Positions 10,553-44,475 of a DNA stretch of 64,000 nucleotides are shown one piece after another. This DNA comes from Salmo salar (taxonomy: Eukaryota): NCBI RefSeq assembly GCF_905237065.1, contig NC_059455.1, positions 34,224,034 through 34,288,033 of the forward strand, given 5' to 3'. The first letter of the stretch is position 1. Each line of letters starts with the position of its first letter. A program made the position numbers and the translations under genes. The notes beneath the pieces are model-generated. The model saw only the letters and a program-made list of their open reading frames with translations, did not search any database and was not told the origin of the DNA.

Positions 10553-10797
10553 CTGGGGGGGAAGGGAGGTAGAGGGGCAGGGCCAGGCTATATGAGATTC
10601 CATGTTGTGCAGGTAAATCGAGTGCGTAAGTAAGGTTTTGGTCAGTCAGAACAGAGATTTCCTTCCGTGGTTGACTCCAACAAATCAAGTCAAATGTTGG
10701 GTTATTAACAGGAAATGACTATGATGAGTATAACAACGAAAATAGTCACATGGTTTACAACTATGATGAAGAGGATGGTGAAAGTAATTAGTCTTAC

Positions 10798-10965: not shown

Positions 10966-11144
10966 CTGACAGACATAAGACAGAGAGACAAACAGAGAGA
11001 CAAAGACTGATTTATTCCTGGTAAACATTACAATCATTGCAGACAAATGCAAGAAAACAACATTATGATTATAGTGATTGAGTGACTAAGTGGTTAAGAT
11101 GGGGGTCTACTCTGTGTGAGTTGGTGAGGGCATAATGTACCAAC

Positions 11145-11342
11145 CTGTGTGTCCCTCTGTGAGGTGGGCAGTGATGATTTGTTCCTTGGTGCCATCAGGT
11201 AGCTCCTTGAACCAGCTGACCTGAACTACCTGCTCCTCCTCCTGAACTTGAAACTGACAGGGCAGCCGCGTCTCATCCTCCGTCAAGGAACACATGGAGA
11301 AGGACGGAGGAGGCTCCACAAACCCACCCCTCACACACACTG
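11145..11342 (-). CDS. nectin4: nectin-4-like gene, V-domain exon 1
   Basis: ORF 11107..11340(-). Acceptor 'ctcatacag|CA', donor 'ACACAG|gttggt'. '...LPCQFQVQEEEQVVQVSWFKELPDGTKEQIITAH...' carries the V(S/T)Q-type motif region. Confidence 0.75.
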
Positions 11343-11539
11343 CTGTATGAGAGAGAGGTGTGTGTGTGTGTGTGTGTTAGAGAAAGCGAAACAGGGTGAG
11401 TGACGGGGTGGAGAAAGAGTAATGCATCATCACTATAACAAACAAGGAATCGCAAACATTGCCCTTTGAAGTGTTGAGGTGGGTATAGACTGTCTGTAGT
11501 TAATGATTCCTTCACTCATTAATGATTACACCCGCAGTT

Positions 11540-16439: not shown

Positions 16440-18950
16440 TACTTGCAACGTGAATTGGTGACCACGGTCGGAGATTATGTCAGTTGGAAAGCCATAGTGC
16501 CGAAGACCTGCTGGAACAATGCCTCAGCGACCCAGAGAGCGGTAGGGAGACATGAGAAAGGGATAAAATGGCAGGATATGGACAATCTGTCCACAAAAAA
16601 CCTAACGGTGGTGAAACCATCAGACAAGGGAAGATCAGTAATAAAATCTATAGATAGATGGGACCAAAGCCGCTGAGGCAAGGGAAAGGGAAAGAGTCTC
16701 CCTGCTGGGTGGAGAATATGTCCACAAAAAACCTAACAGTGGTGAAACCATCAGACAAGGGAAGATCAGTAATAAAATCTATAGATAGATGGGACCAAAG
16801 CCGCTGAGGCAAGGGAAAGGGAAGGAGTCTCCCTGCTGGGGCGTGCCGGGGAGACTTGGTTTGATCACATACAGAGCAGGAGTTGATGTGGCGGTGACGT
16901 CCTGCGCCAAGGTGGGCCACCAGTACTTCACGGAGATGGATTGAGTGGTGTGGGTGATACCTGGGTGTCCAGCAGCAAGGGATGTGTGCGCCCAGTTCAA
17001 TAGCCAATCCCTTACCTCCGTAGGAACGCTCCTGAGGACAGGTAGCAGGCACGGATCCCTCTCCAGAGCCTGGTGTATGTCCACTTCTATGTCCCAAAGC
17101 ACGAGTGCAACGAATTGGGAGGGCTGTATGATGGGCACACTCAGGACTGGAACCTCTCCTGAATCATGGAGATGGGACAGGGCATCGACTTTGATGTTCT
17201 TTGAACCTGGGCAGTATGACAGGGTGAAGTTGAATCTTGTAAAGAAAAGGGCCCATCTTCCTTGACGCGGGTTCAGCCGCTTCACTGTCCGTATGTACTC
17301 CAGGTTCCAATGGTCATTGAAGATGAGAAACGGGTCCGTGGCTCCACTCATCTAATGCCAACTTCACCTACAGGAGCTCCTGATCACCGATGTCATAGTT
17401 CCTTTCTGCAGAAGACAGTTTTTTAGAGTATGCACATGGATACAATTCTTGTGGATTAACTTGAGGTTGTGACAGGACGGCCCCCACACCCACTTCTTAG
17501 GCATCCACCTCCACCACGACGGGCAGCGTAGGATCTGGGTGTTTCAGCAGTAGGCAGAAGGCCTCATCGGCTGCAGGATTCCACACCAACCTACGGGGAG
17601 CACCTTTGAGGAGAGAGGTGAGAGGAGAGGCGATGAAGCTGAAGTTCCTAATGAAGTGGCGGTAGAAGTTGGCAAACCCCCAAAAACGTTGTTGTCCCTT
17701 TATGGTGGTTGGGACTGGCCATGACCTGACTATATTTATCTTCCTCTCCTCCATAACCACTCCCTGTGGGCTGATCCGATATCCCAAGAAGGAGACAGCG
17801 GCCTGTTGGAACTGGCACTTCTCCACTTTGACATACAGATGGTTCTCCAGGAGGCGTGCCAGGACTCCCCCGATGTGGGCAATGTGCTACTCCAAGGTGG
17901 CCGAGAAAATCAGGATGTTGTTGATTTATACGACCACCTGATGCCCAAGCATGTCCCGAAACACCTCGTTCAGTAATGCCTGGAACACTGACAGAGCATT
18001 GGCTAATCCATAAGGCATCACCAAGTACTCGTAGTGCCCAGACATCGTGCTGAAGGCCGTCTTCCATTCATCCCCCTCCTGGATGCAGATGAAATTGTAG
18101 GCACTACGCAGGTCCAGCTTGGTAAAGAAAAACAGGCCTTGCGGAGCTGTTCAATGGTGGCCGGCATCAATTGGAGGGGGTAGCGGTACTTGGTGGTGAT
18201 GGCATTGAGACCTCTGTAGTCAATACATGGACGAAGACCCCCCTCCTTCTTGGCCACGAAGAAGAAACCTGCCGACGCAGGGGAAGTGGATGGGCAGATG
18301 AAATCTTGTTGGAGAGCCTCCTTGATGTATTCCTCCATAGCCTTGCTTTCAGCCACCGACAGTGGGTAGATGCAGAGTCTGTTAGCAGGTCGATGGCACA
18401 GTCCCAGGGGCAATGAAGAAGGAGACAGGTGGCGAGGGTCTTGGAGAAAACCTCCCTGAGAACCTGGTAAACCTCCAGGATGTCGGCCTGGAGGGCAACC
18501 ATAGGACTCTCAACTGACGTGGAACCACAGGGTAAAGGAAAGCAGGTCTTCTGACATCCGGGTGCCCAGGCCGTGGTCTCCATCCTCGAGCAGGAGATGG
18601 TGGGGTTGTGGCTTGGGAGCCCTACGAGGCCGAGGATGACTTTGTGTACGGGTGCCTGGATGATGAGGAGGGAAGGTTTTCTTGGTGCAGAGGTCCCACG
18701 CATTTGGATGGAATCCCATCATATTTGTCTGGAAGAGACAAAAGGGCATCGCTAACCTGGGAAGACTGCTGAATGGACTGGGGTGCTGGCTCGCTGGGTC
18801 GACTCATTGTAGAAGATCCTCCGCTCGTTAGGGGTGACGTCCTTTGAGGAATATCTAGACGTAGAAGAACGCAGAGGACCTCATCCATAGCCATCCCTAG
18901 TTGCACCAGCTGGTCGTGGTGTTGGCAAAGTAGGTCGCCCTTGTTTGCCG
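16440..18950 (-). mobile_element. Ty3/gypsy LTR-retrotransposon pol fragment (protease-RT-RNaseH-integrase), frameshifted, with an internal 136-bp tandem duplication
   Basis: ORFs 18018..18413(-) RT ('[33 protein letters not shown]'), 17497..17826(-) ('[50 protein letters not shown]'), 16779..17351(-) ('FFTRFNFTLSYCPGSKNIKVDALSH') and 16648..17097(-) integrase ('CSVCDQTKSPRHAPAGRLLPFPLPQRLWSHLSIDFITDLP'). Confidence 0.8.
16592..16863. repeat. Tandem duplication of about 136 bp inside the gypsy integrase region
   Basis: 'gacaatctgtccacaaaaaacctaacggtggtgaaaccatcagacaagggaagatcagtaataaaatctatagatagatgggaccaaagccgctgaggcaagggaaagggaa' occurs twice in tandem. ORFs 16475..16681(-) and 16648..17097(-) share the 'LPFPLPQRLWSHLSIDFITDLPLSDGFTTVRFFVD' segment. 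Confidence 0.85.
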
Positions 18951-24639: not shown

Positions 24640-27600
24640 GAAAATAACAAATAATTAAAGAGCAGCAGTAAAATAACAGCAGCAAGGCTATATACGGGTG
24701 GTACCGGTACAGAGTCAATGTGCGGGGGCACAGGTTAGTCGAGGTAATTGAGGTAATTCGTACATGTAGTTAGAGTTAAAGTAATTATGCAGAGATAATA
24801 AAGCGAGAGTAGCAGCAGCGTAAAGGGGGGGGGGGCAATGCAAATACTCAGGGTAGCCATTTGAGTAGCTGTTCAGGAGTCTTATGGCTTGGGGGTAGAA
24901 TCTGTTAAGAAGCCTTTCCGTGCTGTAGCAGAGAGAACAGTCTATGACTAGGGTGGCTGGAGTCTTTGACAATTTTTAGGGCCTTCCTCTGACACTGCCT
25001 GGTATAGAGGTCCTGGATGGCAGGAAGCTTGGCCCCAGTGATGTACTGGGCCGTACACACTACCCTCTGTAGTGGCTTGTGGTCAGAGGCCGAGCAGGTG
25101 CCATACCAGGCAGTGATGCAACCCGTCAGGATGCTCTTGATGGTGAAGCTGTATAACTTTTTGAGGATCTGAGGACCCATGCCAAATCTTTTCACTCTCT
25201 TGAGGGGGAATAGGTTTTGTCGTGCCCTCTTCACGACTGTCTTGGTGTGTTTGGACCATGATAGTTTGATAGTTTGATAGACCATGATAGTTTGTTGGTG
25301 ATGTGGACACAAAGGAACTTGAAGCTCTCAACCTGCTCCACTACAGCCCCATCGATGAGGATAGGGACCTGCTCGTCCTCCTTTTCCTGTAGTCCACAAT
25401 TATCTCCTTTGTCTTGATCACATTGAGGAAGAGGTTGTTATCCTGGCACCACACGGCCAGGTCTCTGACCTCCTCCCTAAAGGCTCTCATCGTTGTCAGT
25501 GATCAGGCCTACCACTGTTGTCATCTGCAAACTTAATGATTGTGTTGGAGTCATAACTGGCCATGCAGTCATGGGTGAACAGGGAATACAGAAAGGGACT
25601 GAGCACGCACCCCTGAGGGGCCCCTGTGTTGAGGATCAGCGTGGCAGATGTGTTGTTACCTACCCTTACCACCTGGGGTCGGCCCGTCAGGAAGTCCAGG
25701 ATCCAGTTGCAGAGTGAGGTGTTTAGTCCCAGGGTCCTTAGCTTAGTGATGAGTTTTGAGGGCACTATGGTGTTGAACGCTGAGCTGTAGTCAATGAATA
25801 GCATTCTCACGTAGGTGTTCCTTTTGTCCAGGTGGGAAAGGGTAGTGTGGAGTGCAATAGAAATTGCATCATCTGTGGATCTGTTGGGGTGGTATGCAAA
25901 TTGGAGTGGGTCTAGGGTTTCTGGGATAATGGTGTTGATGTGAGCCATGACCAGCCTTTCAAAGCACTTCATGGCTACAGACGTGAGTGCTACTGGTCGT
26001 AGTCATTTAGGCAGGTTACTGTAGTGTTCTTGGGCACAGGGACTATGGTGTTCTGCTTGAAACATGTTGGTATTACAGACTCAGTCAGGGACAGGTTGAA
26101 AATGTCAATGAAGACACTTGCCAGTTGGTCAGCGCATGCTCGGAGTACACGTCCTGTTAATCCGACCTGTTTAAAGGTCTTACTCACATCGGCTACACAG
26201 TGCGTGATCACACAGTCGTCAGGAACAGCTGATGATCTCATGCATGCTTCAGTGTTGCTTCCCACGAAGCAAGCGTAGAAGTATTTTAGCTTGTCTGGTA
26301 GGCTCGTGTCACTGAGCAGCTCACGGCTGTGCTTCCCTTTGTAGTCTGTAATAGTTTTCAAGCCCTACCACATCCGATGAGCGTCGGACCTGATGTAGTA
26401 CGATTCAATTATAGTCCTGTATTGATGCTTTGCCTGTTTGATGGTTCGTCAGAGGGCAAAGCGGGATTTCTTATAAGCGTCTGGGTTAGAGTCCCGGTCC
26501 TTGAAAGCGGCAGCTCTACCTTTTAGCTCAGTGCGGATGTTGCCTGTAGTCCATGGCTTCTGGTTGGGTTATGTACGTACGGCCACTGTGGGGATGATGT
26601 CATCGATGCACTTATTGATGAAGCCAGTAACTGATGTGGTGTACTCCTCAATGCCATCGGATGAATCCCGGAACATATTCCTGTCTGTGCTAGCAAAACA
26701 GTCCTGTAGCTTAGCATCTGCGTCATCTGACCACTTCTTTATTGACCGAGTCACTGGTGCTTCCTGCTTTAGTTTTTGCTTGTAAGCGGGAATCAGGAGG
26801 ATAGAATTATGGTCAGATTAGCCAAATGGAGGGCGAGGGAGAGCTTTATACTTGTCTCTGTGTGTGGAGTAAAGGTGGTCTAGAGTTTTTTCCCCTCTGG
26901 TTGCACATTTAACGTGCTGATAGAAATCAGGTAAAACGGATTTAAGTTTCCCTGCGTTAAAGTCCCCGGCCACTAGGAGCGCCGCATCTGGATGAGCGTT
27001 TTCCTGTTTGCTTATTGCCTTATACAGCTCATTGAGTGCGGTCTTAGTGCCATCATCGGTTTGTGGTGGTAGGTAGACAGCTCAGAAAAATATAGTTCAA
27101 AACTCTCTTGGTAAATAGTGTGGTCTACAGCTTATCATGAGATACTCTACCTCAGGTGAGCAAAACCTCAAGACTTCCTTAATAAGTTAATATTAGATTT
27201 CGTGCATCAGCAGTTATTTACAAATAGACACCCTTGTCTTATCGGAGCCAGCTGTTCTGTCTTGCAAATGCAGCGTAAACCCCACCAGCTGTATGTTATC
27301 CGTGTCTTCGTTCAGCCACAACTTGGTGAAACATAAGATATTACAGTTTTTAATGTCCCGTTGGTAGAATATTCATGATCGTAGCTCGTTTATTTTGTTA
27401 TTCAATGATTGTACGTTGGCTAATAGGACTGATGGCAGATTACCCACTCGCCGTCGGATCCTTACAAGGCACCCTTACCCCTGACCTACACCCCTCTGTC
27501 TCTTTCTCATGCAAATGACGGGGATTTGGGCCTTGTCGGGTGTCTGAAGTAAATCCTTCACGTCCGACTCGTTAAAGAAAAAAATCTTTGTCCAGTACGA

Positions 27601-27800
27601 GGTGAGTAATCGCTGTCCTGATATCCAGAAGCTATTTTTGGTCATAAGAGACAGTGGCTGAAACATTATGTACAAAATAATTTCAAATAACGCGAAAAAA
27701 CACACTATAGTACAATTGGTTTGGAGTCTGTAAAACGGCAGCCATTTCCTCCGGCTCCATTCTTTGGTGTAGATAGGAACATTGCTGAAAGACGTCCAAT
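24640..27800 (-). mobile_element. 5'-truncated Rex/CR1-like (jockey-clade) LINE: reverse transcriptase ORF2 on the - strand
   Basis: ORFs 25990..26361(-) ('[51 protein letters not shown]'), 25496..25972(-) ('[15 protein letters not shown]...[20 protein letters not shown]...IKFADD') and 24905..25312(-) ('TAWYGTCSASDHKPLQRVVCTAQYITGAKLPAIQDLYTRQCQRKALKIVKD'). Confidence 0.85.
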
Positions 27801-28437
27801 GGCTCTATCAAACAAGAACAACCATATCTACACGCATAAAAACAAATATTGTGATCAGTAACTATGGATCTGTGAATACCATCTAGTGGTCTTTCTTGAT
27901 CTCAAGCAAGGATACCTGGCTTTGACAGATAAAATAATCTCACATGCAGTTGGTCAGTCAGTCGGTCAGTCCATCGGACTCTGTGCAGTCAGTTGTTGAG
28001 CCTTTGTTGGGTTCTTCCCACGGTGACACAGTAGAATGTAGTAGTAACACTCATATGTAACACAGTAGTAACACTCATATGGTTTTATAATATCAGTTTA
28101 AGCATGGACAGAATACATTCATGTCAATGAAGCTGTAATCAAAAAAGAAAACTGACCCTGATTTAAGTTAGTTTCTGAATCATTTAATCTTTAAATGACA
28201 AGTTAATTGATAGTCAATTATACAAAGTGAAAGGGCTGCTTTACAGAATAACCAAAATGCATCTTAAACACTTCCCATCTCGGGCCCGCAGTCAACAGCC
28301 ACCAACACTACCGGCCCAACCTAACCTAAGATTTGGAAAGCAAGCAGTCATATAGATCAAAACTAATTTAAATGCCATGTAAGACGGGGTTGTGGTTTGT
28401 TGTTTACCACCACTCACACTACTGTCTTCTTCCTCTA

Positions 28438-28506
28438 TCACACCAGCATCGCTTTCTTCTGCACCTTGATGGTCTCATAGGTGTCCTGACCTTTATGGGT
28501 CAAACC
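28438..28506 (-). CDS. fcer1g: FcR-gamma-like ITAM adaptor, last exon (GLTHKGQDTYETIKVQKKAMLV*), encoding the second ITAM tyrosine YETI
   Basis: Acceptor 'cctctcacag|GGT'. 22 codons then TGA. Compare human FCER1G C-terminus '[20 protein letters not shown]'. Confidence 0.75.
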   Translation of the reverse strand, partial: GLTHKGQDTYETIKVQKKAMLV

Positions 28507-28624
28507 CTGTGAGAGGAAGAACAATGAGGGACTTGAAAACAACTTGAAATCCTTAAAACTGCAATATTCTTTGTCATTTATGATATACTGTAAGTCATAA
28601 TAAGAATAAGAAAAATGATCTTAC

Positions 28625-28645
28625 TGCGTAAAGTCCCTCTCCTTT
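28625..28645 (-). CDS. fcer1g: FcR-gamma-like adaptor, 21-nt microexon (KGEGLYA), encoding the first ITAM tyrosine
   Basis: Perfect acceptor 'ccattttacag|AAA' and donor 'GCA|gtaagat'. It is in frame (phase 0/0) with the last exon, giving the ITAM 'YAGL-x7-YETI'. Confidence 0.6.
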
Positions 28646-28699
28646 CTGTAAAATGGAAATTACGAGAGCTGTTATCTGCGTTGTTATCTGCTGAAGGCA

Positions 28700-28710
28700 C
28701 ACATGCACAT

Positions 28711-28768
<58 letters not shown>

Positions 28769-28770
28769 AA
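28700..28770. repeat. (CA)n microsatellite within an fcer1g-like intron
   Basis: Direct reading. Confidence 0.95.
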
Positions 28771-29399
28771 TTTATTTTATCAGAAGAACATTTAACAAAA
28801 GAACATCATTCCTCATTTCTCCTTCCGTCTTTCTCATGTTCTCCTTCTCTACTTTTTTTAATCGGGCAAAGAAAGGAATTGGTGTAGAAGACTAGACACA
28901 GAGGGTGATGATGCGACCGTTTAAAGCTTCACTACTCTTTGCTTCCACTGTATTTTGATTTTCTTTCTAAGTAATCTGTCTACCCGGGTATTTCTGTGTA
29001 ACAGGATATAGTGTTGCATTTTAGTCTGACTGTAATGGAAACTGTGTTTATAAGTGGCAGGGTTGGTGGTCAGTTCTTGTTAACAGGAAATTATCACAGT
29101 TGCTGAAGGAGGGGGACGAAAAGCAGAACTGTGGACTTCGAGGGGACATGGTAAGACAGCATATGACATATTCCTCTTACATAGCTAATTTGTTGAACAA
29201 CCAGGAGGAAGCATTTCGCCAGCTGAATTTGATCAACATTCAGATGTATACATATATTTTGGGGTTTGTAAAGAAAGCTAGAGTTGAATAGTGGTTATTG
29301 AGGGTATTGTGTAAATTATACATGCCCAATACACATTTACTTTCTCTCTCGCTCTTTCTTTCTCTCCCTCTTACATATGCACACACATTTTTATTGTAC

Positions 29400-29459
29400 C
29401 TGTGGATACCCGCCAGTGCCCTGTGGAGATCCGCCATTGTTTATGTAGATGGGATGTAT
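29400..29459 (-). CDS. fcer1g: FcR-gamma-like adaptor, tentative linker exon (IHPIYINNGGSPQGTGGYPQ)
   Basis: A 60-nt open frame between acceptor 'ttcctcag|ATA' and donor 'CAG|gtacaa', phase 0/0 as required between the TM exon and the microexon. No homology support. Confidence 0.35.
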
Positions 29460-29736
29460 CTGAGGAACATGATAAATATAATTTTAATTAAACAGCTGTG
29501 TGAATGTGAAACATATTCTATTTATGTGGGAGCTGGTCTTCAATTGGTGAGGCATTTATATTCTTATTGATGTTTTGAATGTGCTATTATTATTGAAATA
29601 TAAATAGCATTTTACAGTATGAATATTGTTAATATGGTCATGGAGATATGTGTGCACTGCATACCCTGATGTATCATATGTTTTGTGGATGGTGGAATGA
29701 TTTATAATGTGTTATAGAGCGTTTATAATTCCTTAC

Positions 29737-29831
29737 CCTCAGTCTGCAGTACAAGATGGTGAGAATGACGCCATAGATCACGAGAATCCCATCCAGGATA
29801 TAACAGAGTTTACCGTCTGGCACTTGAGCCT
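29737..29831 (-). CDS. fcer1g: FcR-gamma-like adaptor, transmembrane exon (EAQVPDGKLCYILDGILVIYGVILTILYCRLR)
   Basis: ORF 29674..29874(-). Acceptor 'tgtgcag|AG', donor 'CTGAGG|gtaagg'. Near-identical to human FCER1G '[28 protein letters not shown]' and CD3-zeta '[21 protein letters not shown]', including the intramembrane Asp and the dimerising Cys. Confidence 0.85.
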
Positions 29832-30107
29832 CTGCACACATTATGGGATCACACTGCATCATCATCATCATCACTATCCCATCATCATGTAAAACAATGT
29901 TTTCTCAACCACAAGCCTACTATTTGTATCTGTTCATGTTGTAATACTGCAAATAATGAATTATACATGTAATACACATTAGTGTTTAGAACATTGTAGT
30001 TAAATATAAAGATAAATCATCTATTGCATAGAGTACTGTGTTACTAGGCCATTAAGTTGAGGATCAGGAGTAATTATCACAGTACACTGAGTATACATGT
30101 CCCTCTA

Positions 30108-30156
<49 letters not shown>

Positions 30157-30227
30157 TAAATATCCCTGTCCATGATGGAATAAAAAAGTGCTGAACATCA
30201 TAATGTAAAATAAAACAGGATTCTCAC

Positions 30228-30282
30228 CTGCAAAGCTGAAGTTCAAGAGTAGAGCGACCAAGATCAGAGATCCCCGAAACAT
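30228..30282 (-). CDS. fcer1g: FcR-gamma-like adaptor, exon 1 (MFRGSLILVALLLNFSFA, signal peptide)
   Basis: ORF 30064..30297(-) begins '(MPATK)MFRGSLILVALLLNFSFAG' with a 'gtgaga' donor right after 'GCAG'. Phase 1 joins 'G'+'AG' = Glu at the start of the TM exon. Confidence 0.7.
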
Positions 30283-31349
30283 CTTCGTAGCAGGCACAAA
30301 ATGAAAGGTTAAAGAGAGTAGATGGAGAGTTGGAGTACTTCGTGTTATTTCAATGGCTGTCTGTGGGTTTCTGACACCTCTGAACAGAAAGTGCAGAGAG
30401 CTCTAGCAGGAAGTTATGGGCTCATACTGGTGTCCGTTTTTATATGCTAAAACCACATGCTTGTCCCCTTCCCACCCACAGATATATAGTACTTGTTAAC
30501 TTCAGTGAGAAGAGAAGATGGAAACACAAACATATACACATTTATGATGCATACATTATTACACTGTGCCTGGATACCTCATTATGTGCCATATTGTAAT
30601 TCAAAAGAATGGATACTGTGTAAGGCTACTTGTTGGTGTGAATAACTTTTTTTTAAAGTTGTGATGTAAATATTAAATAATATGGTGGTCAGAAACATAA
30701 ACTTCAACTTAGTATGATATACATACACATGGCTAAATAAGAAGTTACTTTTCAGGGTGTTCACATGGTGTTGCATGTTTTCACTAAAGCATTGTTCACA
30801 CTTCAGGCCTTAATGCTCAAATCAGTTTTGTTTTTCAAATTCGTTTAGGAATATTGACTGTCCAAACAACAAGTTACAAGTAACCAAATCGGATTTGTGC
30901 ATGTTCAGACAGCAGTCATTCGCTGACATGGCTACGCTATTTGTCGTAGTAATGACAGGCGTGTGCCCATTGATGTAGGCTGATTGGTGGTGGTGCTCCT
31001 GCTTCCTATCACACATAAGTTATGTAGCAAGCTAAGGTGACAACAATGCCTGCCATGGACGTTTCTCAGTTGATTTGAATGTTCAAAATCATAGTGTAAG
31101 AACCCTTTTAAAGCCTCAAAGGATATGATCCAACTTTCTAAATGAGTTTGTCTAGCCACAGCAGTCAACTAGCTAGGTAGCTTTTTTGCTTTCTAGCACA
31201 TTCACTACTTTGTAAACAATTATCTAGTTACCTACCACATGTTCTTGTCAACAAAGTAGCTAGCAAGCAACAAGATATGCCAAATAACATTAAAAAAATC
31301 ACTTGAGGGCAAATAGATCAGATTTGACCGTTCAGACACAAGTCGCATG

Positions 31350-31810
31350 GCCAGGTATCAATCAAATTTATTTATAAAGCCCTCAGCCGATGTCACAAAG
31401 TGCTATACAGAAACCCAGCCTAAAACCCCAAACAGCAAGCAATGCAGATGTAGAAGCATGGTGGCTAGGAAAAAGTCCCTAGAAAGGCAGGAACCTAGGA
31501 AGAAACCTATAGAGGAACCAGGCTCTGAGGAGTGGCCAGTCCTCTTCTGGCTGTACCGGGTGGAGATTATAACTGAACATGAACATGGCCAAGATGTTCA
31601 AATGTTCATAGATGACCAGCAGGGTCAAATAATAATAATTACAGTGGTTGGTCAGCACCTCAGGAGTAAATGTCAGATGGCTTTTCATAGCCGAGCATTC
31701 AGAGTTCAAGACAGCAGGTGCGGTAGAGTCGAAAACAGCAGGTCCGGGACAAGGTAGCACATCCGGTGAACAGGTCAAGGTTCCATAGCCGCAGGCAGAA
31801 CAGTTGAAAC
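31350..31810 (+). repeat. Fragment of an unclassified salmonid interspersed repeat
   Basis: 'atttatttataaagccctcagccgatgtcacaaagtgctatacagaaacccagcctaaaaccccaaacagcaagcaatgcagatgtagaagcatggtggctaggaaaaagtccctagaaaggcaggaacctaggaagaaacctatagaggaaccaggctctgagg...' matches a high-copy salmonid repeat I recognise but cannot name. ORF 31347..31757 is spurious. Confidence 0.45.
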
Positions 31811-34197: not shown

Positions 34198-34458
34198 CTA
34201 CACAGAGGTCTCCGACTGTAGCCTCATCACAAACTTGTGGCTCTTGGGGTCGATAAACTCCTCACCAATACGCAGGAAGGGGAGGGGCTGCACCGTGACG
34301 ACCAGGGAGAAGTCAAGGCGGCGCAGGGAGAAGACCAGACCCTGACGCAGGGCAGAGGTCACCGGCTCCTCGCTCACTAGAGTCCAATGGCGCCCCCTGC
34401 CATTCTCACGCTGGTACTGCAAGGTAGGGCCTGGGCTGAGGTAACGCTCCAGGAAAGC
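34198..34458 (-). CDS. vangl2: vangl2 exon 7 (last exon, ...[18 protein letters not shown]-binding ETSV)
   Basis: ORF 34198..34470(-). Acceptor 'tcttttcag|GCT'. '[16 protein letters not shown]...LVSEEPVT...DFSLVV...[21 protein letters not shown]' is near-identical to the human VANGL2 C-terminus. Confidence 0.9.
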
Positions 34459-34695
34459 CTGAAAAGACAAAAATACAGCCTTTCAAAATCAACCTTACAC
34501 AGGAAGAACTGTGAATGGGTACAGAGTAGATGAGTAGTTAAGCACAACTGATTGTTTGAATTGTAGATCTGATCAAATGCAGGATATTTATCCCAAAAGC
34601 TATTGTAACATTATACCCAGGAAGTGACCCAATGTATCCCTTCTCTTTGCAGGTTATACATTATAGACAAGTGAACGTGATACGTTGTTTCTCAC

Positions 34696-34942
34696 CTTGG
34701 GGGTCATGTTGTGAGTGATACAGAACTGCAGGTGTGTGAGGATGCTCTCCATGCTGTGGTAGGGCTGCTGGCGCGTGGTCCTCAGGTACTTCTGCATGGC
34801 TCGGGCCATGGGGGCGAAGATAGCCTGAGCCGCCTCCCGGGGGTCCATCACCTCACGGGGGTGTTTGGGGGACGATGCTGCGGGGTCATCATCCTGGAGA
34901 CGCTTGATGTGGGTGAAGGCCTCTTCCACTGCCACTACCAGC
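34696..34942 (-). CDS. vangl2: vangl2 exon 6
   Basis: ORF 34654..34983(-). '[16 protein letters not shown]...[55 protein letters not shown]' matches human VANGL2 '[16 protein letters not shown]...[56 protein letters not shown]'. Donor 'AAG|gtgaga'. Confidence 0.9.
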
Positions 34943-34984
34943 CTGGACAACGCAACAATCATCATTATGATCACCATCATCATG

Positions 34985-35190
34985 CTCCCGAGTGGCGCAG
35001 CGGTCTAAGGCACTGCAGTCCCTGGTTCGAATCCAGGCTGCATCACATCCGCCCGTGATTGGGAGTCCCATAGGGCGGCGCACAATTGGCCCAGTGTCAT
35101 CCGAGTTTGGCCGGGGTAGGCCGTCATTGTAAATAATAATTAGTTCTTAAGGGATTGCCTAGTTAAATAAAGGTTAAATATTTTATTATT
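34985..35190 (+). mobile_element. SINE (head plus LINE-derived tail, internally deleted) in vangl2 intron 5
   Basis: 'cccgagtggcgcagcggtctaaggcactgcagtccctggttcgaatccaggctgcatcacatccgcccgtgattgggagtcccatagggcggcgcacaattggcccagtgtcatccgagtttggccggggtaggccgtcattgtaaataataattagttcttaagggattgcctagttaaataaaggttaaata'. Confidence 0.8.
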
Positions 35191-35422
35191 ATATATCTTT
35201 TTTTTTAAATCATGATACAGGAGAGCTTAATGGATAGTGTCATCAGTCATCATTACTGTGCCTGAAATGCACTATGAAAGGGACTGGTCATTCTCTAGCA
35301 ACGTACATAACAAAATTCACTGAACACAAACAGAATAGGGACATTAACAGGGTTTGTCCCCCTGTAATCACTTAAAAGTATATTATACAAATGTATAGAA
35401 AACAGGATGTTGTCCGTCTTAC

Positions 35423-35558
35423 CTGGCCTTCCGCTTGCGGCACCTGCGGTCCAGCTCGGCCTCCTCGTAGTAATACTCACTGTGAGAGTTGTCTCTCCTG
35501 CGGGCTGCAGCAGCAATCATGGCCCGGGACTGACTGTTGGTGTTATTGGTGCTGTTCT
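35423..35558 (-). CDS. vangl2: vangl2 exon 5 ([46 protein letters not shown])
   Basis: Acceptor 'ccacag|AG', donor 'GCCAG|gtaaga'. Matches human '[46 protein letters not shown]'. Confidence 0.9.
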
Positions 35559-35693
35559 CTGTGGATCAAAACATATACATCAGTCAGTGGATGGATGGAT
35601 GAATGGAGTGAGGTAAGGGTTGGTTAGTTGGTGGATGAATGGATGGATAGAGGGATGAGGTAGAGAAAGTAAGTAGTCTATAATGCTATTTAC

Positions 35694-35827
35694 CATCCAG
35701 AGAGTAGACTTTGAATCCAGACATCTTCTTGGAGAGGATAGACTTGGGCAGGTTGAGCAGGGCAGGGTTGTAGACAGGGAAGTCCCTGTAGTACTGATCC
35801 AGCACCCACACTGCTGCCCTCTGGACA
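35694..35827 (-). CDS. vangl2: vangl2 exon 4 (SVQRAAVWVLDQYYRDFPVYNPALLNLPKSILSKKMSGFKVYSLD)
   Basis: Acceptor 'tgttccag|T', donor 'GATG|gtaaat'. Matches human 'SIQRVAVWILEKYYHDFPVYNPALLNLPKSVLAKKVSGFKVYSLGE'. Confidence 0.9.
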
Positions 35828-36599
35828 CTGGAACACACAGACACCAAGTATTTCTATTTACTTCGGATCTGGAATCCCTCAACTGAAGCTAGCCAGCTAA
35901 CTACCTACCAGCTATCAGTCAGCAAACCATTGCTAGCGGTCATCAGCTAACCTTTAGCTCGGAAAGCTCTCGCCAGTTCGAACAACGTGACTCAAACCAG
36001 AGCATAACGGACCTATTATGATTTGTTTTTTTAATTTCCGATATCCCCGGATTCCTATCGTGCCCAGAAACCTGCTCCTTTTACTCTCTGTTCCAAACGT
36101 GCTAGACGGCCAGTTCGTATAGCCTTTAGCCGTACCCTTATCCTACTTCTCCTCTGGTGATGTGGAGGTTAGTCCAGGTCCTGCTGTGCCTAGCTCAACT
36201 CCCACTCCCCAGGTGCTCTCATTTGTTGACTTCTGTAACCGTAAAAGCCTTGGTTTCATGCATGTTAACATTAGAAGCCTACTCCCTAAATTTGTTTTAC
36301 TCACTGCCAAAGGGGGCAGTGTTGCAATCTACTGCAAAGACAGTAATATAGAACTCTGCAGGCTTTCCAAGTCTGTACCCAAACAATTCGAGCTTCTACT
36401 TCAAAAAATTCATCTTCCAGAAAGTTTGTCACTGTTGCCGCTTGCTATAGACCTCCCTCTGCTCCCAGCTGTGCCCTCGATACCATATGTGAATTGCTTG
36501 CCCCCCCATCTATCTTCTGAGCTCGTGCTACTAGGTGACCTAAACTGGGACATGTTTAACCTCTTTGGGCTGGGGGGGCAGTATTTTCACATTCAGATG

Positions 36600-39440
36600 A
36601 AAAGCGTGCCCAGAGTAAACTGCCTGCTACTCAAGCCCAGAAGCTAAGATATGCATATTATTAGTAGATTTGGATAGAAAACACTCAACTTTCTAAAACT
36701 GTTTGAATGATGTCTGTGAGTGTTACAGAACTCATATGGCAGGCAAAAACCTGAGAAAAATCCAACCAGGAAGTGGGAAATCGGAGGTTTGTAGTTTTTC
36801 AAGTAATTGCCTATCCAATATACAGTATAAATTTGGTCAGATTGCACTTCCTAAGGCTACACACTAGATGTCAAGTCTTTAGAAGTTGTTTCAGGCTTCA
36901 ACTGTGAAAGGAAAGCGAAAAAGAGCACTCTAAGCAGATGGCCCAGGTGAAAGCCTTTAGTTTAGTGACGCTCACGGCCGTGAGCACGAGCTCCGTTCCC
37001 TTTCATTTCTAAAGGCAAAGGAATTGTCCGGTTGGAATATTATTGAAGATTTATGATAAAAACATCCTAAAGATTGATTCTATACATTGTTTGACATGTT
37101 TCTACAAACTGTAATGGAACTTTTTTGACTTTTCGTCTGAACCTAGTGCCTTGTGCATTTGGAATAGTGAACTAAACGCGCGAACAAAAAGGAGGTATTT
37201 GGACATAAAGATTAACTTTATCGAACAAAACAAACATTTATTGTGGAACTGGGATTCCTGGGAGTGCATTCCGATGAAGATCATCAAAGGTAAGTGAATA
37301 TTTATAACACTATTTCTGACTTTTGTTGACTCCACAACATGGCGGGTATCTGTATGGCTTGTTTTGGTGGCTGAGCGCTGTACTCAGATTATCGCATGGT
37401 GTGCTTTCACCGTAAAGTTTTTTTGAAATCTGACACAGCGGTTGCATTAACCTCTCTGGGCTAGGTGGGACGCCCACCTACTCAACAGCCAGTGTAATCA
37501 CGTGGCGCGTTATTCAAATACCTCAAAAACGCAAAAACTTCAATTTTTCAAACATATGACTAATTTACACCATTTTAAAGACAAGACTCTCGTTAATCTA
37601 ACCACACTGTCCGATTTCAAAAAGGCTTTACAATGAAAGCAAAACATTAGATTATGTCAGCAGACTACCCAGCCAGAAATAATCAGACACCCATTTTTCA
37701 AGCTAGCATATGTCACATAAACCCAAACCACAGCTAAATGCAGCACTAACCTTTGATGATCTTCATCAGATGACAACCCTAGGACATTATGTTATACAAT
37801 ACATGCATGTTTTGTTCAATCAAGTTCATATTTATATCAAAAACCAGCTTTTTACATTAGCATGTGACTAGCATTCCCACCGAACACTGCCGGTGAATTT
37901 ACTAAATTACTCACGATAAACGTTCACAAAAAACATAAAAATTCTTTTAAGAATTATAGATACAGAACTCCTCTATGCACTCGCTATGTCCGATTTTAAA
38001 ATAGCTTTTCAGTGAAAGCACATTTTGCAATATTCTCAGTAGATAGCCCGGCATCACAGGGCTAGCTATTTAGACACCCAGCAAGTTTAGCACTCACCAA
38101 AGTCAGATTTACTATAAGAAAAATGTTATTACCTTTGCTGTTCTTCGTCAGAATGCACTCCCAGGACTTCTACTTCAATAACAAATGTTGGTTTGGTCCC
38201 AAATAATCCATTGTTATATCCAAATAGCGGCGTTTTGTTCGTGCGTTCAAGACACTATCCGAAAGGGTAAATAAGGGTGACGAGCATGGCGCATTTCGTG
38301 ACAAAAAATGTCGAAATATTCCATTACCGTACTTCGAAGCATGTCAACCGCTGTTTAAAACCAATTTTTATGCAATTTTTCTCGTAAAAAAGCGATAATA
38401 TTCCGACCGGGAAAGCGTGTATACGTACAAAGAGAGAGAAAATAAAAACATCTCGTGCCCTCGTGCACGAGCCTGAGTCTCAGAGTACTCTGATCGGCCA
38501 CTATCCAAACGCGATAATGTTTTTCAGCCTGGGGCTGCCTCGATATCATTCAGCTTTTTCCCGGGCTCTGAGAGCCTATGGGAGCCGTAGGAAGTGTCAC
38601 GTTACAGCAAAGATCCCCAGTCTTCAATAAAAAGAGCCAAGATGAACAACAACTTGTCAGACAGGCCACTTCCTGTTCAGAATCCTCTCAGGTTTTTGCC
38701 TGCCATATGAGTTCTGTTATACTCACAGACACCATTCAAACAGTTTTAGAAACTTTAGGGTGTTTTCTATCCAAAGCCAATAATTATATGCATATTCTAG
38801 TTACTGGGCAGGAGTAGTAACCAGATTAAATCGGGTACGTTTTTTATCCGGCCGTGTCAATACTGCCCCCTAGCCCTAACAGGTTAAGGAGAAGTTTATC
38901 TATAATCCTATGCATAACATTTGTATCTTTCATCAAAGTTTATGATGAGTATTTCTGTGGCTCTCTGCAAAATCACCGGATGTTTTGTAGGCAAAACATT
39001 ACTGAACATAACGCGCCAATGTAAACTGAGATTTTTGGATATAAATATGAACTTTATCGAAATTTGATTTGATTTGATCGAACAAAACATACATGTATTG
39101 TGTAACATGAAGTCCTATGAGTGCCATCTGATGAAGATAATCAAAGGTTAGTGATACATTTTATCTCTATTTCTGCTTTTTGTGACTCCTCTCTTTGGCT
39201 GGAAAATGGCTGTATATTTCTTTGTGACTAGGTGCTGACCTAACATAATCGTATGGTATGCTTTCGCCGTAAAGCCTTTTTGAAATCAGACACTGTGGCT
39301 GGATTAACAAGAAGTTAATCTTTAAAATGGTACATAATACTTGTATGTTTGAGGAATTTTAATTATGAGATTTCTGTTTTGAATTTGGCGCCCTGCAATT
39401 TCACTGGCTGTTGTCGAGGTGGGACGCTAGCGTCCAACAT
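36600..39440. mobile_element. Cluster of a non-autonomous DNA element with terminal inverted repeats, flanked by a TTAAC duplication (piggyBac-like), inserted into the LINE. Internally arranged as a direct copy (36650-37455), an inverted copy (37500-38880) and a partial direct copy (38885-39440).
   Basis: The LINE ORF is contiguous across the insertion ('...LLGDLNWDM' | 'NTPAILQS...'). The left junction is 'gggacatgTTTAAC|CTCTTTGGGCTGGGGGGGCAGTATT'. The right junction is 'GGGACGCTAGCGTCCAACATATCCCAGAGAGG|TTTTAACacccc'. The termini are mutually inverted (CCTCT.TGGG...CCCAGAGAGG). The same terminus recurs at 37455 'ttaac|cctctctgggctaggtgggacgc' and, inverted, at 38850 'gccctaacag|gttaa'. Confidence 0.55.
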
Positions 39441-40056
39441 ATCCCAGAGAGGTTTTAACACCCCGGCCATCCTACAATCTAAGCTTGATGCCCTCAATCT
39501 CACACAAATTATCAATGAACCTACCAGGTACAACCCCAAATCCATAAACACGGGCACCCTAATAGATGTCATCCTAACTAACTCGCCCTCCAAATACACC
39601 TCTGCTGTTTTCAATCAAGATCTCAGCAATCACTGCCTCATTGCCTGCATCCGTAATGGGTCTGCGACCAAACGACCACCCCTCATCACTGTCAAACGCT
39701 CCCTAAAACACTTCTGCGGGTGACACTCTAGACCCAAACTGCTACAGACCTATATCTATCCTACCCTGTCTTTCTAAGGTCTTCGAAAGCCAAGTTAACA
39801 AAGAGATTACGGACCATTTCGAATCCCACCGTACCTTCTCCGCTATGCAATCTGGTTTCAGAGCTGGTCATGGGTGCACCTCAGCCACGCTCAAGGTCCT
39901 AAACGACATCATAACCGTCATCGATAAGAGACATTACTGTGCAGCCGTATTCATCAACCTGGCCAAGGCTTTCGACTCTGTCAATCACCACATTCTTATT
40001 GGCAGACTCGACAGCCTTGGTTTCTCAAATGATTGCTTCGCCCGGTTTCCCAACTA

Positions 40057-41623
40057 TACTGCTCAAAAAAATAAAGGGAACACTTAAACAACACAATGTA
40101 ACTCCAAGTCAATCACACTTTTGTTAAATCAAACTGTCCACTTAGGAAGCAACACTGATTGACAATAAATTTCACATGTTGTTGTGCAAATGGAATAGAC
40201 AACAGGTGGAAATTATAGGCAATTAGCAAGACACCCCCAATAAAGGAGTGGTTCTGCAGGTGGGGACCACTTCTCAGTTCCTATGCTTCCTGGCTGATGT
40301 TTTGGTCACTTTTGAATGCTGGCGGTGCTTTCACTCTAGTGGTAGCATGAGACGGAGTCTACAACCCACACAAGTGGCTCAGGTAGTGCAGCTCATCCAG
40401 GATTGCACATCAATGCGAGCTGTGGCAAGAAGGTTTGCTGTGTCTGTCAGCGTAGTGTCCAGAGCATGGAGGGTGCTACCAGGAGACAGGCCAGTACATC
40501 AGGAGACGTGGAGGAGGCCGTAGGAGGGCAACAACCCAGCAGAAGGACCGCTACCTCCGCCTTTGTGCAAGGAGGAGCAGGAGGAGCACTGCCAGAGCCC
40601 TGCAAAATGACCTCCAGTAGGCCACAAATGTGCATGTGTCTGCTCAAACAGTCAGAAACAGACTCCATGAGGGTGGTATGAGGGCCCGACGTCCACAGGT
40701 GGGGGTTGTGCTTACAGCCCAACACCGTGCAGGACGTTTGGCATTTGCCAGAGAACACCAAGATTGGCAAATTCGCCACTGGCACCCTGTGCTCTTCACA
40801 GATGAAAGCAGGTTCACACTGAGCACGTGACAGACGTGACAGAGTCTGGAGACGCCGTGGAGAACGTTCTGCTGCCTGCAACATCCTCCAGCATGACCGG
40901 TTTGGCGGTGGGTCAGTCATGGTGTGGGGTGGCATTTCTTTGGGGGGCCGCACAGCCCTCCATGTGCTCGCCAGAGGTAGCCTGACTGCCATTAGGTACC
41001 GAGATGAGATCCTCAGACCCCTTGTGAGACCATATGCTGGTGCGGTTGGCCCTGGGTTCCTCCTAATGCAAGACAATGCTAGACCTCATGTGGCTGGAGT
41101 GTGTCATCAGTTCCTGCAAGAGGAAGGCATTGATGCTATGGACTGGCCCGCCCGTTCCCCAGACCTGAATCCAATTGAGCACATCTGGGACATCATGTCT
41201 CACTCCATCCACCAACGCCACGTTGCACCACAGACTGTCCAGGAGTTGGCGGATGCTTTAGTCCAGGTCTGGGAGGAGATCCCTCAGGAGACCATCCGCC
41301 ACCTCATCAGGAACATGCCCAGGCGTTGTAGGGAGGTCATACAGGCACGTGGAGGCCACACACACTACTGAGCCTCATTTTGACTTGTTTTAAGGACATT
41401 ACATCAAAGTTGGATCAGCCTGTAGTGTGGTTTTCCACTTTAATTTTGAGTGTGACTCCAAATCCAGACCTCCATGGGTTGATAAATTGGATTTCCATTG
41501 ATTATTTTTGTGTGATTTTGTTGTCAGCACATTCAACTATGTAAAGAAAAAAGTATTTAATAAGATTATTTCATTCATTCAGATCTAGGATGTGTTATTT
41601 TAGTGTTCCCTTTATTTTTTTGA
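40057..41623 (+). mobile_element. Near-complete Tc1-like transposon (transposase ORF with about two frameshifts) inserted into the LINE RT region with a TA target-site duplication
   Basis: Inverted repeats 'tactgctcaaaaaaataaagggaacac' and its reverse complement at 41597-41623. ORFs 40248..40523, 40630..40830 and 40919..41371(+) are transposase ('VWGGISLGGRTALHVL...[42 protein letters not shown]'). Host LINE sequence 'ccaacTA|cttctctgatagag' is split. Confidence 0.85.
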
Positions 41624-41876
41624 GCAGTGTACTTCTCTGATAGAGTTCAGTGTGTCAAATCGGAGGGCCTGTTGTCCGGACCTCTGGCAGTCTCTATGGG
41701 TGTGCCACAGGGTTCAATTGTCGGGCCGACTCTCTTCTCTGTATACATCAATAATGTTGCTCTTGCTGCTGGTGATTCTCTGATCCACCTCTACGCAGAC
41801 GACACCATTCTGTATACTTCTGGCCCCTCTTTGGACACTGTGTTAACTAACCTCCAGACGAGCTTCAATGCCCGTG

Positions 41877-42012
41877 TGGCTCAGTTGGTAGAACATGGTG
41901 TTTGCAACGCCAGGGTTGTGGGTTCAATTCCCAGTACGGAGAAAAAATGTATGAAATGTATGCATTCACTACTGTAAGTCACTCTGGATAAGAGCGTCTG
42001 CTAAATGACTAA
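41877..42012 (+). mobile_element. SmaI-type tRNA-derived SINE inserted into the LINE RT
   Basis: 'gtggctcagttggtagaacatggtgtttgcaacgccagggttgtgggttcaattcccagtacggagaaaaaatgtatgaaatgtatgcattcactactgtaagtcactctggataagagcgtctgctaaatgactaaaatgtaaata' interrupts 'LQTSFNA|IQLSF' of the LINE relative to the copy at 51250. Confidence 0.8.
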
Positions 42013-43255
42013 AATGTAAATACAACTCTCCTTCCGTGGCCTCCAACTGCTCTTAAACGCAAGTAAAACTAAATGCATGCTATTCAATCGATCACTGCCC
42101 GCACCTGCTCGCCCGTCCAGCATCACTACTCTGGACGGTTCTGACTTAGAATACGTGGACAGCTATAAATACCTGGGTGTCTGGTTAGACTGTAAACTCT
42201 CCTTCCAGACTCACATTAAGCATCTCCAATCCAAAATTAAATCTAGAATCGGCTTCCTATATCACAACAAAGCATCCTTCACTCATGCTGCCAAACATAC
42301 CCTCATAAAACTGACCATCCTACCGATCCTCGACTTCGGTGATGTCATCTATAAAATAGCCTCCAACACTCTACTCAACAAACTGGATGCAGTCTATCAC
42401 AGCGCCATCCGTTTTGTCACCAAAGCCCTATACACGACCCACCATTGCGACCTGTACGCTCTCGTTGGTTGTCCCTTGCTTCATATTCGTCGCCAAACCC
42501 ACTGGTTATCTACAAGTCTCTGCTAGGTAAAGCTCTGCCTTATCTCAGCTCACTGGTCACCATAGCAGCACGCGCTCCAGCAGGTATATCTCACTGGTCA
42601 CCCCCAAAGCCAATTCCTCCTTTGGTCGCCTTTCCTTCCAGTTCTCTGCTGCCAATGACTGGAACGAACTGCAAAAATCTCTGAAGCTGGAGACTCATAT
42701 CTCCCTCACTAGCTTTAAGCACCAACTGTCAGAGCAGCTCACAGATCACTGCACCTGTACATAGCCCATCTGTAAACAGCCCATCTACCTACCTACCTCA
42801 TCCCCATACTGTATTTATTTATCTTGCTCCTTTGCACCCCAGTATCTCTACTTGCCCATTCATCTTCTGCACAGCTACCATTCCAATGTTTAATTGCTAT
42901 ATTGTAATTACTTCGCCACCATGGCCTATTTATTGCCTTAACTTACCTCATTTGCACTCACTGTATATAGACTTTTTGTTTTCTTTTGTTCTACTGTATT
43001 ATTGACTGTATGTTTTGTCTATTCCATGTGTAACTCTGTGTTGTTGTATGTGTCACACTGCTTTGCTTTATCTTGGCCAGGTCGCAGTTGCAAATGAGAA
43101 CTTGTTCTCAACTAGCCTACCTGGTTAAATAAAGGTGAAATATATATATATATTTTTTTTTAAATGGTAAGATCCATCGTCATTATGATCTTTATCATTG
43201 TGTTAGTAATGATCATCCTCATCCTATGACACACTACAGTCACACACATACTGAC

Positions 43256-43863
43256 CTGAGGTGTCCCACATTGTAGAAGCGGCTAGCCCCGTCTGTGGTG
43301 CGCACCACCTTGAGGCAGAAGGCAGGCTGCAGTTGTCTGACCTCCAGTAGCACCAGGGCCAGGTACTGGATAAAGAGCAGCGCGTCCACCAGCGACGCCG
43401 CATACTCCACGATGCCTCTATAGTCCCTTTCCCGGGGCTCCAGCACACGCACGCCATAGAACAGCCAGTAGGACGCCACGAACAGGAACACCAGCACCAT
43501 GAGCAGGCAGCGGAAGACGAAGAAGCGGGGCAGGGTGGCGCGCGGAGGGCGCAGGAACAGTGCCCAGGAGGAGATGAGGAGCACCAGGAGCTTGAAGGCC
43601 AGAGAGACGTATAGACCCTCGCAGGGCGTGCCGCAGGGCTCCAGGGCCTCACGCCACAGCAGCTGGGGGAGGACCAGGAAGGCCAGGGGGGTGAACAGGG
43701 CGAACAGGCCCAGGCAGCCACCCAGCACAGGCCCCAGGAAGCGCTTGCATTCCAGGGGAGACGATTCCTCCAGCTCCTTGGAGACGCGCGTCAGGTCCTC
43801 GTTGGAAACGCTGTGTTCTGATGTGCCTGTGACCACAGTGGTGGTCTCACCCCAGTTGTCATC
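43256..43863 (-). CDS. vangl2: vangl2 exon 3 (large exon encoding all four transmembrane helices)
   Basis: ORF 43240..43836(-). Acceptor 'ctctgtag|GAT', donor 'CTCAG|gtcagt'. '[18 protein letters not shown]...[37 protein letters not shown]...[75 protein letters not shown]' matches human VANGL2 almost residue for residue. Confidence 0.9.
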
Positions 43864-44121
43864 CTACAGAGAGGAACAGAGACAGGAGATAGTGTAAACA
43901 TAGAGGAGAGATTGGAAAGGGGGCTTTAAAGAGATATGAGAGGATAGAGATGTTGAGATTTGGATGGGTAGGGAAGATGACTGGGGCCCTGAGGTTTTTC
44001 TGACCACATAACCTGATCTGAGTTTTTCCTGGTTAGGTCACATGGTCAGGAAAACCTCTGGCCCTATTATGAGATAAAGATTATGAGATGTAGAGGGGTT
44101 GGAGGAGGTTGTGATTCTGAC

Positions 44122-44245
44122 CCGGTCATCTCCGCGGGTGGATTCTGCATCTAGCAGTGGCTCCCCAGGGGCATGGACGGTCACAGACTTGTCTCCACGG
44201 CTGCTGCCGTCTCTGCTCTTGGAGCGATGCCTGTCCCTCCGATCC
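44122..44245 (-). CDS. vangl2: vangl2 exon 2 (RDRRDRHRSKSRDGSSRGDKSVTVHAPGEPLLDAESTRGDDR)
   Basis: ORF 44038..44271(-). Acceptor 'gtgctccag|G', donor 'CGG|gtcaga'. Matches human VANGL2 'RDRRDRHRSKSRDGSRGDKSVTIQAPGEPLLDNESTRGDER', which is diagnostic for Vangl2 rather than Vangl1. Confidence 0.9.
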
Positions 44246-44475
44246 CTGGAGCACAGAAACAGGACAACCACACAGTTATGTCAGCGTGTTAAGCCCATGT
44301 CATTGTGTGACCGAAGCCTGGGGGTACATGTGTGATCCGTGCGTGTGGTTGCTCATCAATGTGCCCATTGACTAATGGATCGATGTGTATTACACACATG
44401 CCTTTGATCTCTGTGTTTACAGTGTGCGTGCACGCTTGTGTGTTTTTGGGGCATTTGTGACCACCCTTCTGGTAC

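Follow-up and report, generated by a model that had tools for sequence, protein, structure and literature searches.

The gene and its product

The subject of this analysis is a small gene in a stretch of 64,000 nucleotides (nt) from the Atlantic salmon, Salmo salar (assembly GCF_905237065.1, contig NC_059455.1, positions 34,224,034 to 34,288,033 of the forward strand). The whole stretch is referred to as the window, and all coordinates are counted from its first letter. The gene lies on the minus strand of the interval 28438-30282, consists of five short coding exons with canonical AG/GT boundaries throughout and encodes a membrane adaptor of the FcRγ/CD3ζ family with a single immunoreceptor tyrosine-based activation motif (ITAM). 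Very probably, the locus is the already annotated Atlantic salmon fcer1gl (FcR-gamma-like) gene, of which the NCBI isoform X3 corresponds to the following exon model. Both the gene and its split ITAM are ordinary and already known.

30282-30228, minus strand: exon 1, 55 nt, with the ATG at 30282; codes for the signal peptide MFRGSLILVALLLNFSFA plus one base and ends in phase 1 at the donor GTGAGA
29831-29737, minus strand: exon 2, 95 nt; codes for (E)AQVPDGKLCYILDGILVIYGVILTILYCRLR, comprising the ectodomain stub EAQVPDGK, the dimerisation cysteine and the transmembrane (TM) helix with an aspartate
29459-29400, minus strand: exon 3, 60 nt; codes for the cytoplasmic linker IHPIYINNGGSPQGTGGYPQ with two non-ITAM tyrosines (YINN, GGYPQ)
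28645-28625, minus strand: exon 4, the microexon, 21 nt; codes for KGEGLYA with the first ITAM tyrosine and ends in phase 0 between Yx and GL
28506-28438, minus strand: coding part of exon 5, 69 nt including the TGA stop codon; codes for GLTHKGQDTYETIKVQKKAMLV and completes the ITAM

All introns start with GT and end with AG after a pyrimidine-rich tract, and their phases (1, 0, 0, 0) are compatible with each other. The spliced coding sequence of 300 nt is translated into 99 amino acids (aa). Exon 2 reads …KLCYILDGILVIYGVILTILYCRLR at the ectodomain stub and the TM segment, the helix itself being LCYILDGILVIYGVILTILYCRLR. The ITAM is YAGL-THKGQDT-YETI, which fits the pattern Yxx[LI]-x6-8-Yxx[LI] with a spacer of seven residues, and the junction of exons 4 and 5 cuts it between YA and GL. 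An earlier note, made from the letters of the window, had proposed these five exons, and its coordinates and peptides were exact, including the short signal-peptide exon, the TM peptide, the pattern YAGL-x7-YETI and the 21-nt microexon KGEGLYA splitting the ITAM. It had deduced the linker exon at 29400-29459 from splice signals and phase, which was correct because the exon is contained in both salmon protein records described below. The note had also expected about 98 aa with one ITAM; the number of ITAMs was right but the computed length is greater by one residue. Moreover, it had stated that no exon exceeds 32 codons and that no ORF caller would find the gene. The former holds, as the longest exon has 95 nt, whereas the latter was too strong because the gene is in fact recovered by eukaryotic annotation pipelines. 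The difficulty itself is genuine, since the annotation of a Coregonus genome skipped the microexon (see below).

The 99-aa product agrees letter for letter with the S. salar protein XP_013996246.1 (100% identity, 100% coverage, E = 1.3e-59), which is named 'Fc receptor, IgE, high affinity I, gamma polypeptide like isoform X3 [Salmo salar]' and is one of three isoforms of the gene in the salmon reference annotation. The same sequence is also held as GenBank ACI69533.1, outside the XP_ model series. We take the series of the latter accession to be that of a salmon full-length cDNA project; if so, ACI69533.1 is cDNA-derived and shows directly, at the transcript level, that all four exon joins are used, those of the linker exon included. 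The product also matches the Pfam family PF11628 (TCR_zetazeta; 1.5e-14, 53.9 bits at a cut-off of 25, residues 24-51) and contains the TM dimerisation motif LCYILDG with a cysteine at the membrane edge and an aspartate within the membrane, as in the family pattern CYxLD. The leader consists of 18 hydrophobic residues, which are followed by about eight residues before the cysteine; both parts align with the leader and the stub of human FCER1G, and the cleavage site is putative. Among the proteins of known structure, the FCER1G chains of human, mouse and rat align from the leader to the ITAM, the human chain with 2.5e-14 over residues 7-94. The full-length identity together with the PF11628 and human FCER1G matches lies far beyond chance, and the family assignment made in the earlier note is confirmed.

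The Pfam domain is common to FcRγ and CD3ζ, and CD3ζ chains in the PDB match the TM segment with about 1e-8, which could suggest that the gene is CD3ζ (CD247) or a CD3ζ-like subunit of the T-cell receptor. However, the match to CD3ζ is confined to the TM segment and stops at residue 51, the product has a single ITAM instead of the three of CD3ζ, and in the tree the three-ITAM CD3ζ representatives form a clade of their own. We therefore consider that identity to be effectively refuted already and give it next to no weight. With one ITAM and 99 aa, the protein fits the FcRγ subfamily, whose members have a single ITAM and about 85-100 aa.

Around the coding exons, a candidate polyadenylation signal (ATTAAA; 28183-28188, minus strand) is located 249 nt past the stop codon, and candidate TATAAA and ETS-core motifs occur near the gene; all of these are simple pattern matches. 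No Rfam family was found on either strand of the interval 27000-31500. Mechanically called open reading frames on the plus strand over the locus were rejected because they cross microsatellites and lack support. A (TG)n(TA)n microsatellite lies in intron 1 at about 30107-30155.

A stray record also belongs to this protein family: a 75-aa FcRγ-type protein is filed as 'hypothetical protein, partial [Enterococcus faecium]' on a contig of 254 bp. Fish DNA in a contaminated bacterial assembly is almost certainly the source of this record.

Exon plan, microexon and linker

The exon plan of the family was determined by exact spliced alignment of eight pairs of fish proteins and loci, including NDUFS2-linked fcer1g and the sturgeon gene. 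It can be summarised as follows:

Exon 1, 52-70 nt: leader, ending in phase 1
Exon 2, 92-95 nt: TM segment, ending with CRL[KR]
Exon 3, 24-60 nt: linker
Exon 4, 21-30 nt: ends at 'Yx'
Exon 5, 57-69 nt: begins with 'GL'

In all eight loci, which represent fcer1gl, fcer1g and sturgeon, the five-exon plan is kept and the first YxxL of the ITAM is cut between 'Yx' and 'GL'. Mammalian gene models that read through into introns (from colobus, donkey, naked mole-rat, deer mouse, rat and a bat) begin the read-through with valine after …CRLK, after …[YFHR]E and after KSD[GA]VYT. These boundaries imply that the mammalian exon 4 also has seven codons (21 nt) and the same end point. The salmon microexon itself is identical in all nucleotides to those of charr and of the Coregonus ohnologue. 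An ITAM that is divided by so small an exon represents the ancestral architecture of the family rather than a peculiarity of this gene, and no evidence was seen for a special regulatory meaning of the split in the salmon gene. The by-product of this comparison is a five-exon plan with an ITAM-splitting microexon of 21-30 nt that is kept from sturgeon to salmon and, by extension, in mammals. It is also of practical relevance that the microexon is lost in some annotation pipelines, which then yield ITAM-less proteins. Two models from Coregonus sp. 'balchen' skip it, one of them together with the linker exon, and have lost the complete ITAM; these models are annotation artefacts caused by the microexon.

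The microexon has a second acceptor in salmonids, which is represented in the window by the following feature:

28646-28690, minus strand: alternative 5' extension of exon 4 with the NAGNAG tandem acceptor ttcag|cag|ATA, 42/45 nt upstream of the microexon

Use of this acceptor lengthens exon 4 to 63 or 66 nt and adds the hydrophobic stretch (Q)ITTQITALVISILQ just before the ITAM, and the frame is open in the window. The extension matches annotated isoforms of 113/114 aa (X1/X2) in Oncorhynchus, Salvelinus and Coregonus, and the 66-nt exon was recovered in one of the aligned loci. The frame of the extension is open only in salmonids; in pike, the corresponding stretch contains stop codons, which indicates that the 21-nt microexon is the conserved form. 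Directly upstream of the alternative acceptor in gene orientation, intron 3 contains a long (CA/TG)n microsatellite (about 28700-28770). In other genes, UG repeats beside a 3' splice site can affect exon inclusion.

The linker exon is longer in salmonids and pike, with 57-60 nt in the window gene and in the aligned loci of charr, pike and the Coregonus ohnologue, than elsewhere (24-39 nt). In the window, it contains two units of 15 nt that are identical at 13 of 15 positions. Through tandem duplications of units of about 21 nt, the exon has come to roughly twice its former length in salmonids and pikes; there are two units in Salmo (GGSPQGT/GGYPQ), three (GGYPQGT) in Coregonus and more (KYPDDTS) in Dallia. 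Most of the salmonid and pike sequences, among them those of both salmonid ohnologues, keep a membrane-proximal YxN tyrosine (PIYINN, PTYINT, PIYRNT); such a motif is similar to a docking site for Src homology 2 (SH2) domains of the Grb2 type. FcRγ-named proteins of a caecilian, catshark, elephant shark and a frog carry an extra ITAM-like pair of YxxI/L motifs in the linker and thus count as two-ITAM forms, a hint that tyrosine motifs have been gained or lost repeatedly in this region.

The salmonid genome duplication raises the question of whether the gene is a decaying or non-functional duplicate. A second copy (ohnologue) with the same neighbours does exist in Coregonus, the ratio of nonsynonymous to synonymous substitution rates (dN/dS) within salmonids is moderate (0.47-0.51, from few substitutions), and the linker exon is nearly neutral, with eight nonsynonymous and three synonymous differences from the Coregonus ohnologue. 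However, the gene has an intact reading frame, canonical splice sites throughout and a complete set of ITAM and TM residues. Moreover, dN/dS of the whole coding sequence is 0.15 in comparison with pike, and the microexon and the ITAM exon are conserved at 93-100%. The same protein is also recorded outside the XP_ series, and salmon array probes detect regulated transcripts. Decay is therefore exceedingly improbable, and the gene is under purifying selection.

Placement among the FcRγ paralogues of fish

The FcRγ-type gene of the window is flanked by genes on the same strand, which form the block ncstn - vangl2 - fcer1gl - nectin4:

34201-44280, minus strand: vangl2 (Strabismus), the upstream neighbour; four exons with PF06638 matches up to 7.6e-107
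59713-60021, minus strand: exon of nicastrin (ncstn; Ncstrn_small, 2e-11), beyond vangl2
4898-11376, minus strand: nectin-4-like gene, the downstream neighbour, with V-set, C2-set and I-set exons

The earlier note had named nectin4 as a neighbour in agreement with human 1q23. This proved to be right: in comparisons with PDB structures, the C2 exon of the nectin-like gene matches human nectin-4 with 2.7e-18 and nectin-3 with 2e-7, and the best nectin in the PDB is nectin-4. A homology search with the same exon returned only unnamed single-exon fragments. Orthologues of this nectin-like gene follow fcer1gl on its downstream side in Coregonus and in milkfish (Chanos). The block of ncstn, vangl2 and nectin4 matches that of human 1q23, and synteny of this type is real.

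The note had also concluded that the gene is an FcR-gamma orthologue rather than CD3ζ. The FcRγ type is supported by the single ITAM and the likeness to FCER1G over the full length, but positional orthology is not, because the gene is the teleost paralogue fcer1gl with vangl2 upstream; it can be no more than a co-orthologue of FCER1G. The order vangl2 (or ncstn) - gene - nectin-like gene is also present in pike, charr, the Coregonus ohnologue and the fcer1gl loci of milkfish and Astyanax, with vangl2 specifically seen as the neighbour in pike, charr and Coregonus. In milkfish, fcer1g is located directly downstream of NDUFS2 and on another chromosome than fcer1gl. The FcRγ gene of sturgeon, an outgroup that predates the teleost duplication, likewise has an NDUFS2 exon directly upstream (positions 1835-2071 of that locus); of the Ig gene on the downstream side, the sturgeon locus covers only a small part. 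No NDUFS2 exon (Complex1_49kDa) was found near the gene in the window, where vangl2 is located upstream instead. Human FCER1G is also located directly downstream of NDUFS2. A gene model of the skink Lerista edwardsae fuses the C-terminus of NDUFS2 (…DKMSQGHMLADVVAII) to FcRγ, which, together with the sturgeon exon, suggests that the adjacency of NDUFS2 and FCER1G is tight and old. The bichir gene extends over 75 kb, and there are no neighbours within the flanks of that locus.

The sequence of the protein itself is in line with this placement. In the alignment, the TM signature is ILVIYG…CRLR, which is typical for fcer1gl, and not ILF.YG…CRLK, which is common to tetrapods, non-teleost fishes and teleost fcer1g. 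Two neighbour-joining trees place the window protein among sequences named fcer1gl, with a bootstrap support of 97% for the group of salmonids, pike and mudminnow, and most of the matches outside the salmonids are named 'gamma polypeptide like' (fcer1gl). A profile-free, exhaustive search of cluster representatives yielded a second teleost group named 'subunit gamma', with the TM signature …ILFLYG…CRLK/CRIK and a C-terminus that usually reads TYETIGMKK. Furthermore, the search gave tetrapod FcRγ, two-ITAM forms of cartilaginous fishes and amphibians, and three-ITAM CD3ζ. Both teleost types occur on different chromosomes in several species, for example in milkfish, Hypomesus, Micropterus and Halichoeres. 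It has been described previously that fcer1g and fcer1gl are duplicates specific to ray-finned fishes (Carmona et al., PMC5340972).

Could the gene nevertheless correspond one-to-one to mammalian FCER1G as its strict orthologue? The best match of solved structure is human FCER1G over the full length, and the flanking genes ncstn, vangl2 and nectin4 are all genes of human 1q23. In addition, no NDUFS2-linked member from salmonids or pike was among the matches listed, so that the gene of the window may be the only one of the FcRγ type in salmon. However, the milkfish fcer1g is also missing among the matches listed, and the absence in salmonids is thus not evidence of loss. The upstream gene is vangl2 and not NDUFS2; in milkfish, where the two types occupy different chromosomes, the NDUFS2-linked copy is the other one; and the NDUFS2 linkage is already present in the pre-duplication outgroup sturgeon. 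The TM signature, the position in the tree and the fish-specific duplication reported by Carmona et al. (PMC5340972) also argue against strict orthology, which we regard as very unlikely, and for fcer1gl. The limited value of the missing matches also applies to a further idea, namely that salmonids and pikes have lost fcer1g proper and rely on a modified fcer1gl, in which the expanded linker with its YxN tyrosine would serve as an additional, non-ITAM signalling site. We consider this scenario unlikely. The synteny rule that emerges from the comparison, with NDUFS2-linked genes being fcer1g and vangl2/nectin4-linked genes being fcer1gl, is useful because fish annotations name the two types inconsistently.

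Two further kinds of features surround the genes of the block:

1691-2647, plus strand: open frame of 319 aa ending in C2H2 zinc fingers (zf-C2H2, 4.9e-13), beside or overlapping the 3' part of the nectin-4-like region
6338-8418, 16782-17351, 25499-26002, 40823-41974, 50419-51348 and 63111-63440: transposon remnants in intergenic space and in vangl2 introns

This open frame is likely to be either a zinc-finger gene in its own right or derived from a repeat. The remnants comprise Tc1/mariner elements (helix-turn-helix domain of a Sleeping-Beauty-type transposase, DDE), a fragment of a retrotransposon integrase/RNase H and several RVT_1 frames of the LINE type.

Proposed function and comparison with known systems

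The protein is most likely an ITAM-signalling, disulphide-linked partner for activating receptors of myeloid cells. According to this proposal, the 99-aa chain would be a type I membrane protein whose signal peptide is cleaved off, leaving an ectodomain stub of about eight residues. The cysteine of the stub would link two chains to a disulphide-bonded dimer, and the aspartate in the TM helix would pair with a basic residue in the TM segment of activating receptors that bind ligands but have no signalling tails themselves. Upon clustering of the receptors, kinases of the Src family would phosphorylate both ITAM tyrosines, and the phosphorylated ITAM could then recruit kinases of the Syk family via their tandem SH2 domains, which in turn may trigger phagocytosis, degranulation and the release of cytokines in myeloid cells.

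For dimerisation, receptor pairing, the signalling steps and expression in salmon myeloid cells, we infer this picture from the FcRγ-like protein IpFcRγ-L of catfish and from single-cell data of zebrafish. IpFcRγ-L associates with IpLITR 2.6b and requires the acidic residue in the TM segment for this interaction (PMC4810170). Moreover, degranulation and phagocytosis depend on the tyrosines of its ITAM, and ITAM mutants in which tyrosine is replaced by phenylalanine are dead (PMC4810170). In zebrafish, fcer1gl is confined to myeloid-like cells, whereas fcer1g is also expressed in cells resembling natural killer cells (PMC5340972). Salmon microarray probes named 'FcRgamma-like protein, fcer1g' respond to infection (PMC4079957, PMC7177938). 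A single-cell atlas of brown trout contains no mention of the gene. Given that the gene is annotated, has probes on salmon microarrays and is a member of a teleost adaptor family whose function has been characterised, its significance goes little beyond bookkeeping.

Several points weigh against this assignment or its functional interpretation. The whole fcer1gl clade has a bootstrap support of only 50%, which is due to the fact that only about 85 columns can be aligned. The cDNA origin of ACI69533.1 is an assumption based on the accession series. That catfish IpFcRγ-L is an orthologue of fcer1gl is assumed from its name, and what is said here about expression, protein and receptor interactions in salmon draws on the sequence and on the literature. 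Finally, the linker exon evolves almost neutrally, so the segment that it encodes may lack any specific function.

Among the known systems, CD3ζ has the homologous TM dimerisation domain of PF11628 in common with the salmon protein, and its ITAMs are each split over two exons as well. However, CD3ζ is a subunit of the T-cell receptor with three ITAMs and a tail of about 110 aa or more, and the likeness is restricted to the TM segment. Human and mammalian FCER1G agree with the salmon gene in several features: they possess a signal peptide, the TM segment LCYILD…LYCRL with the cysteine and the aspartate, a single ITAM of the form Yxx(L)-x7-YETL/I and the same logic of five exons with the boundary Yx/GL and, as judged from the read-through models, a 21-nt exon (KSDGVYT). 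The salmon gene differs from FCER1G in having no adjacent NDUFS2, about 45-50% identity, a longer linker and a valine in place of the TM phenylalanine (ILF), and it belongs to a fish-specific paralogous lineage. Teleost fcer1g resembles the salmon gene in family, length class, the single ITAM and an identical exon plan, but is distinguished by NDUFS2 upstream, a different chromosome with different neighbours, the TM signature ILFLYG…CRLK/CRIK and a C-terminus that usually reads TYETIGMKK. The counterpart of the salmon gene is teleost fcer1gl/FcRγ-L, as represented by zebrafish fcer1gl and catfish IpFcRγ-L, with the same NCBI name, the same synteny (vangl2/ncstn - gene - nectin4), the five-exon plan, the TM signature ILV/ILI…CRLR and a single ITAM. 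Within this group, the fcer1gl genes of milkfish and Astyanax have linker exons of 24-30 nt, in contrast to the 57-60 nt of salmonids and pike with their internal duplication of the 21-nt type and the YxN tyrosine, and salmonids have added the alternative acceptor that lengthens the microexon.

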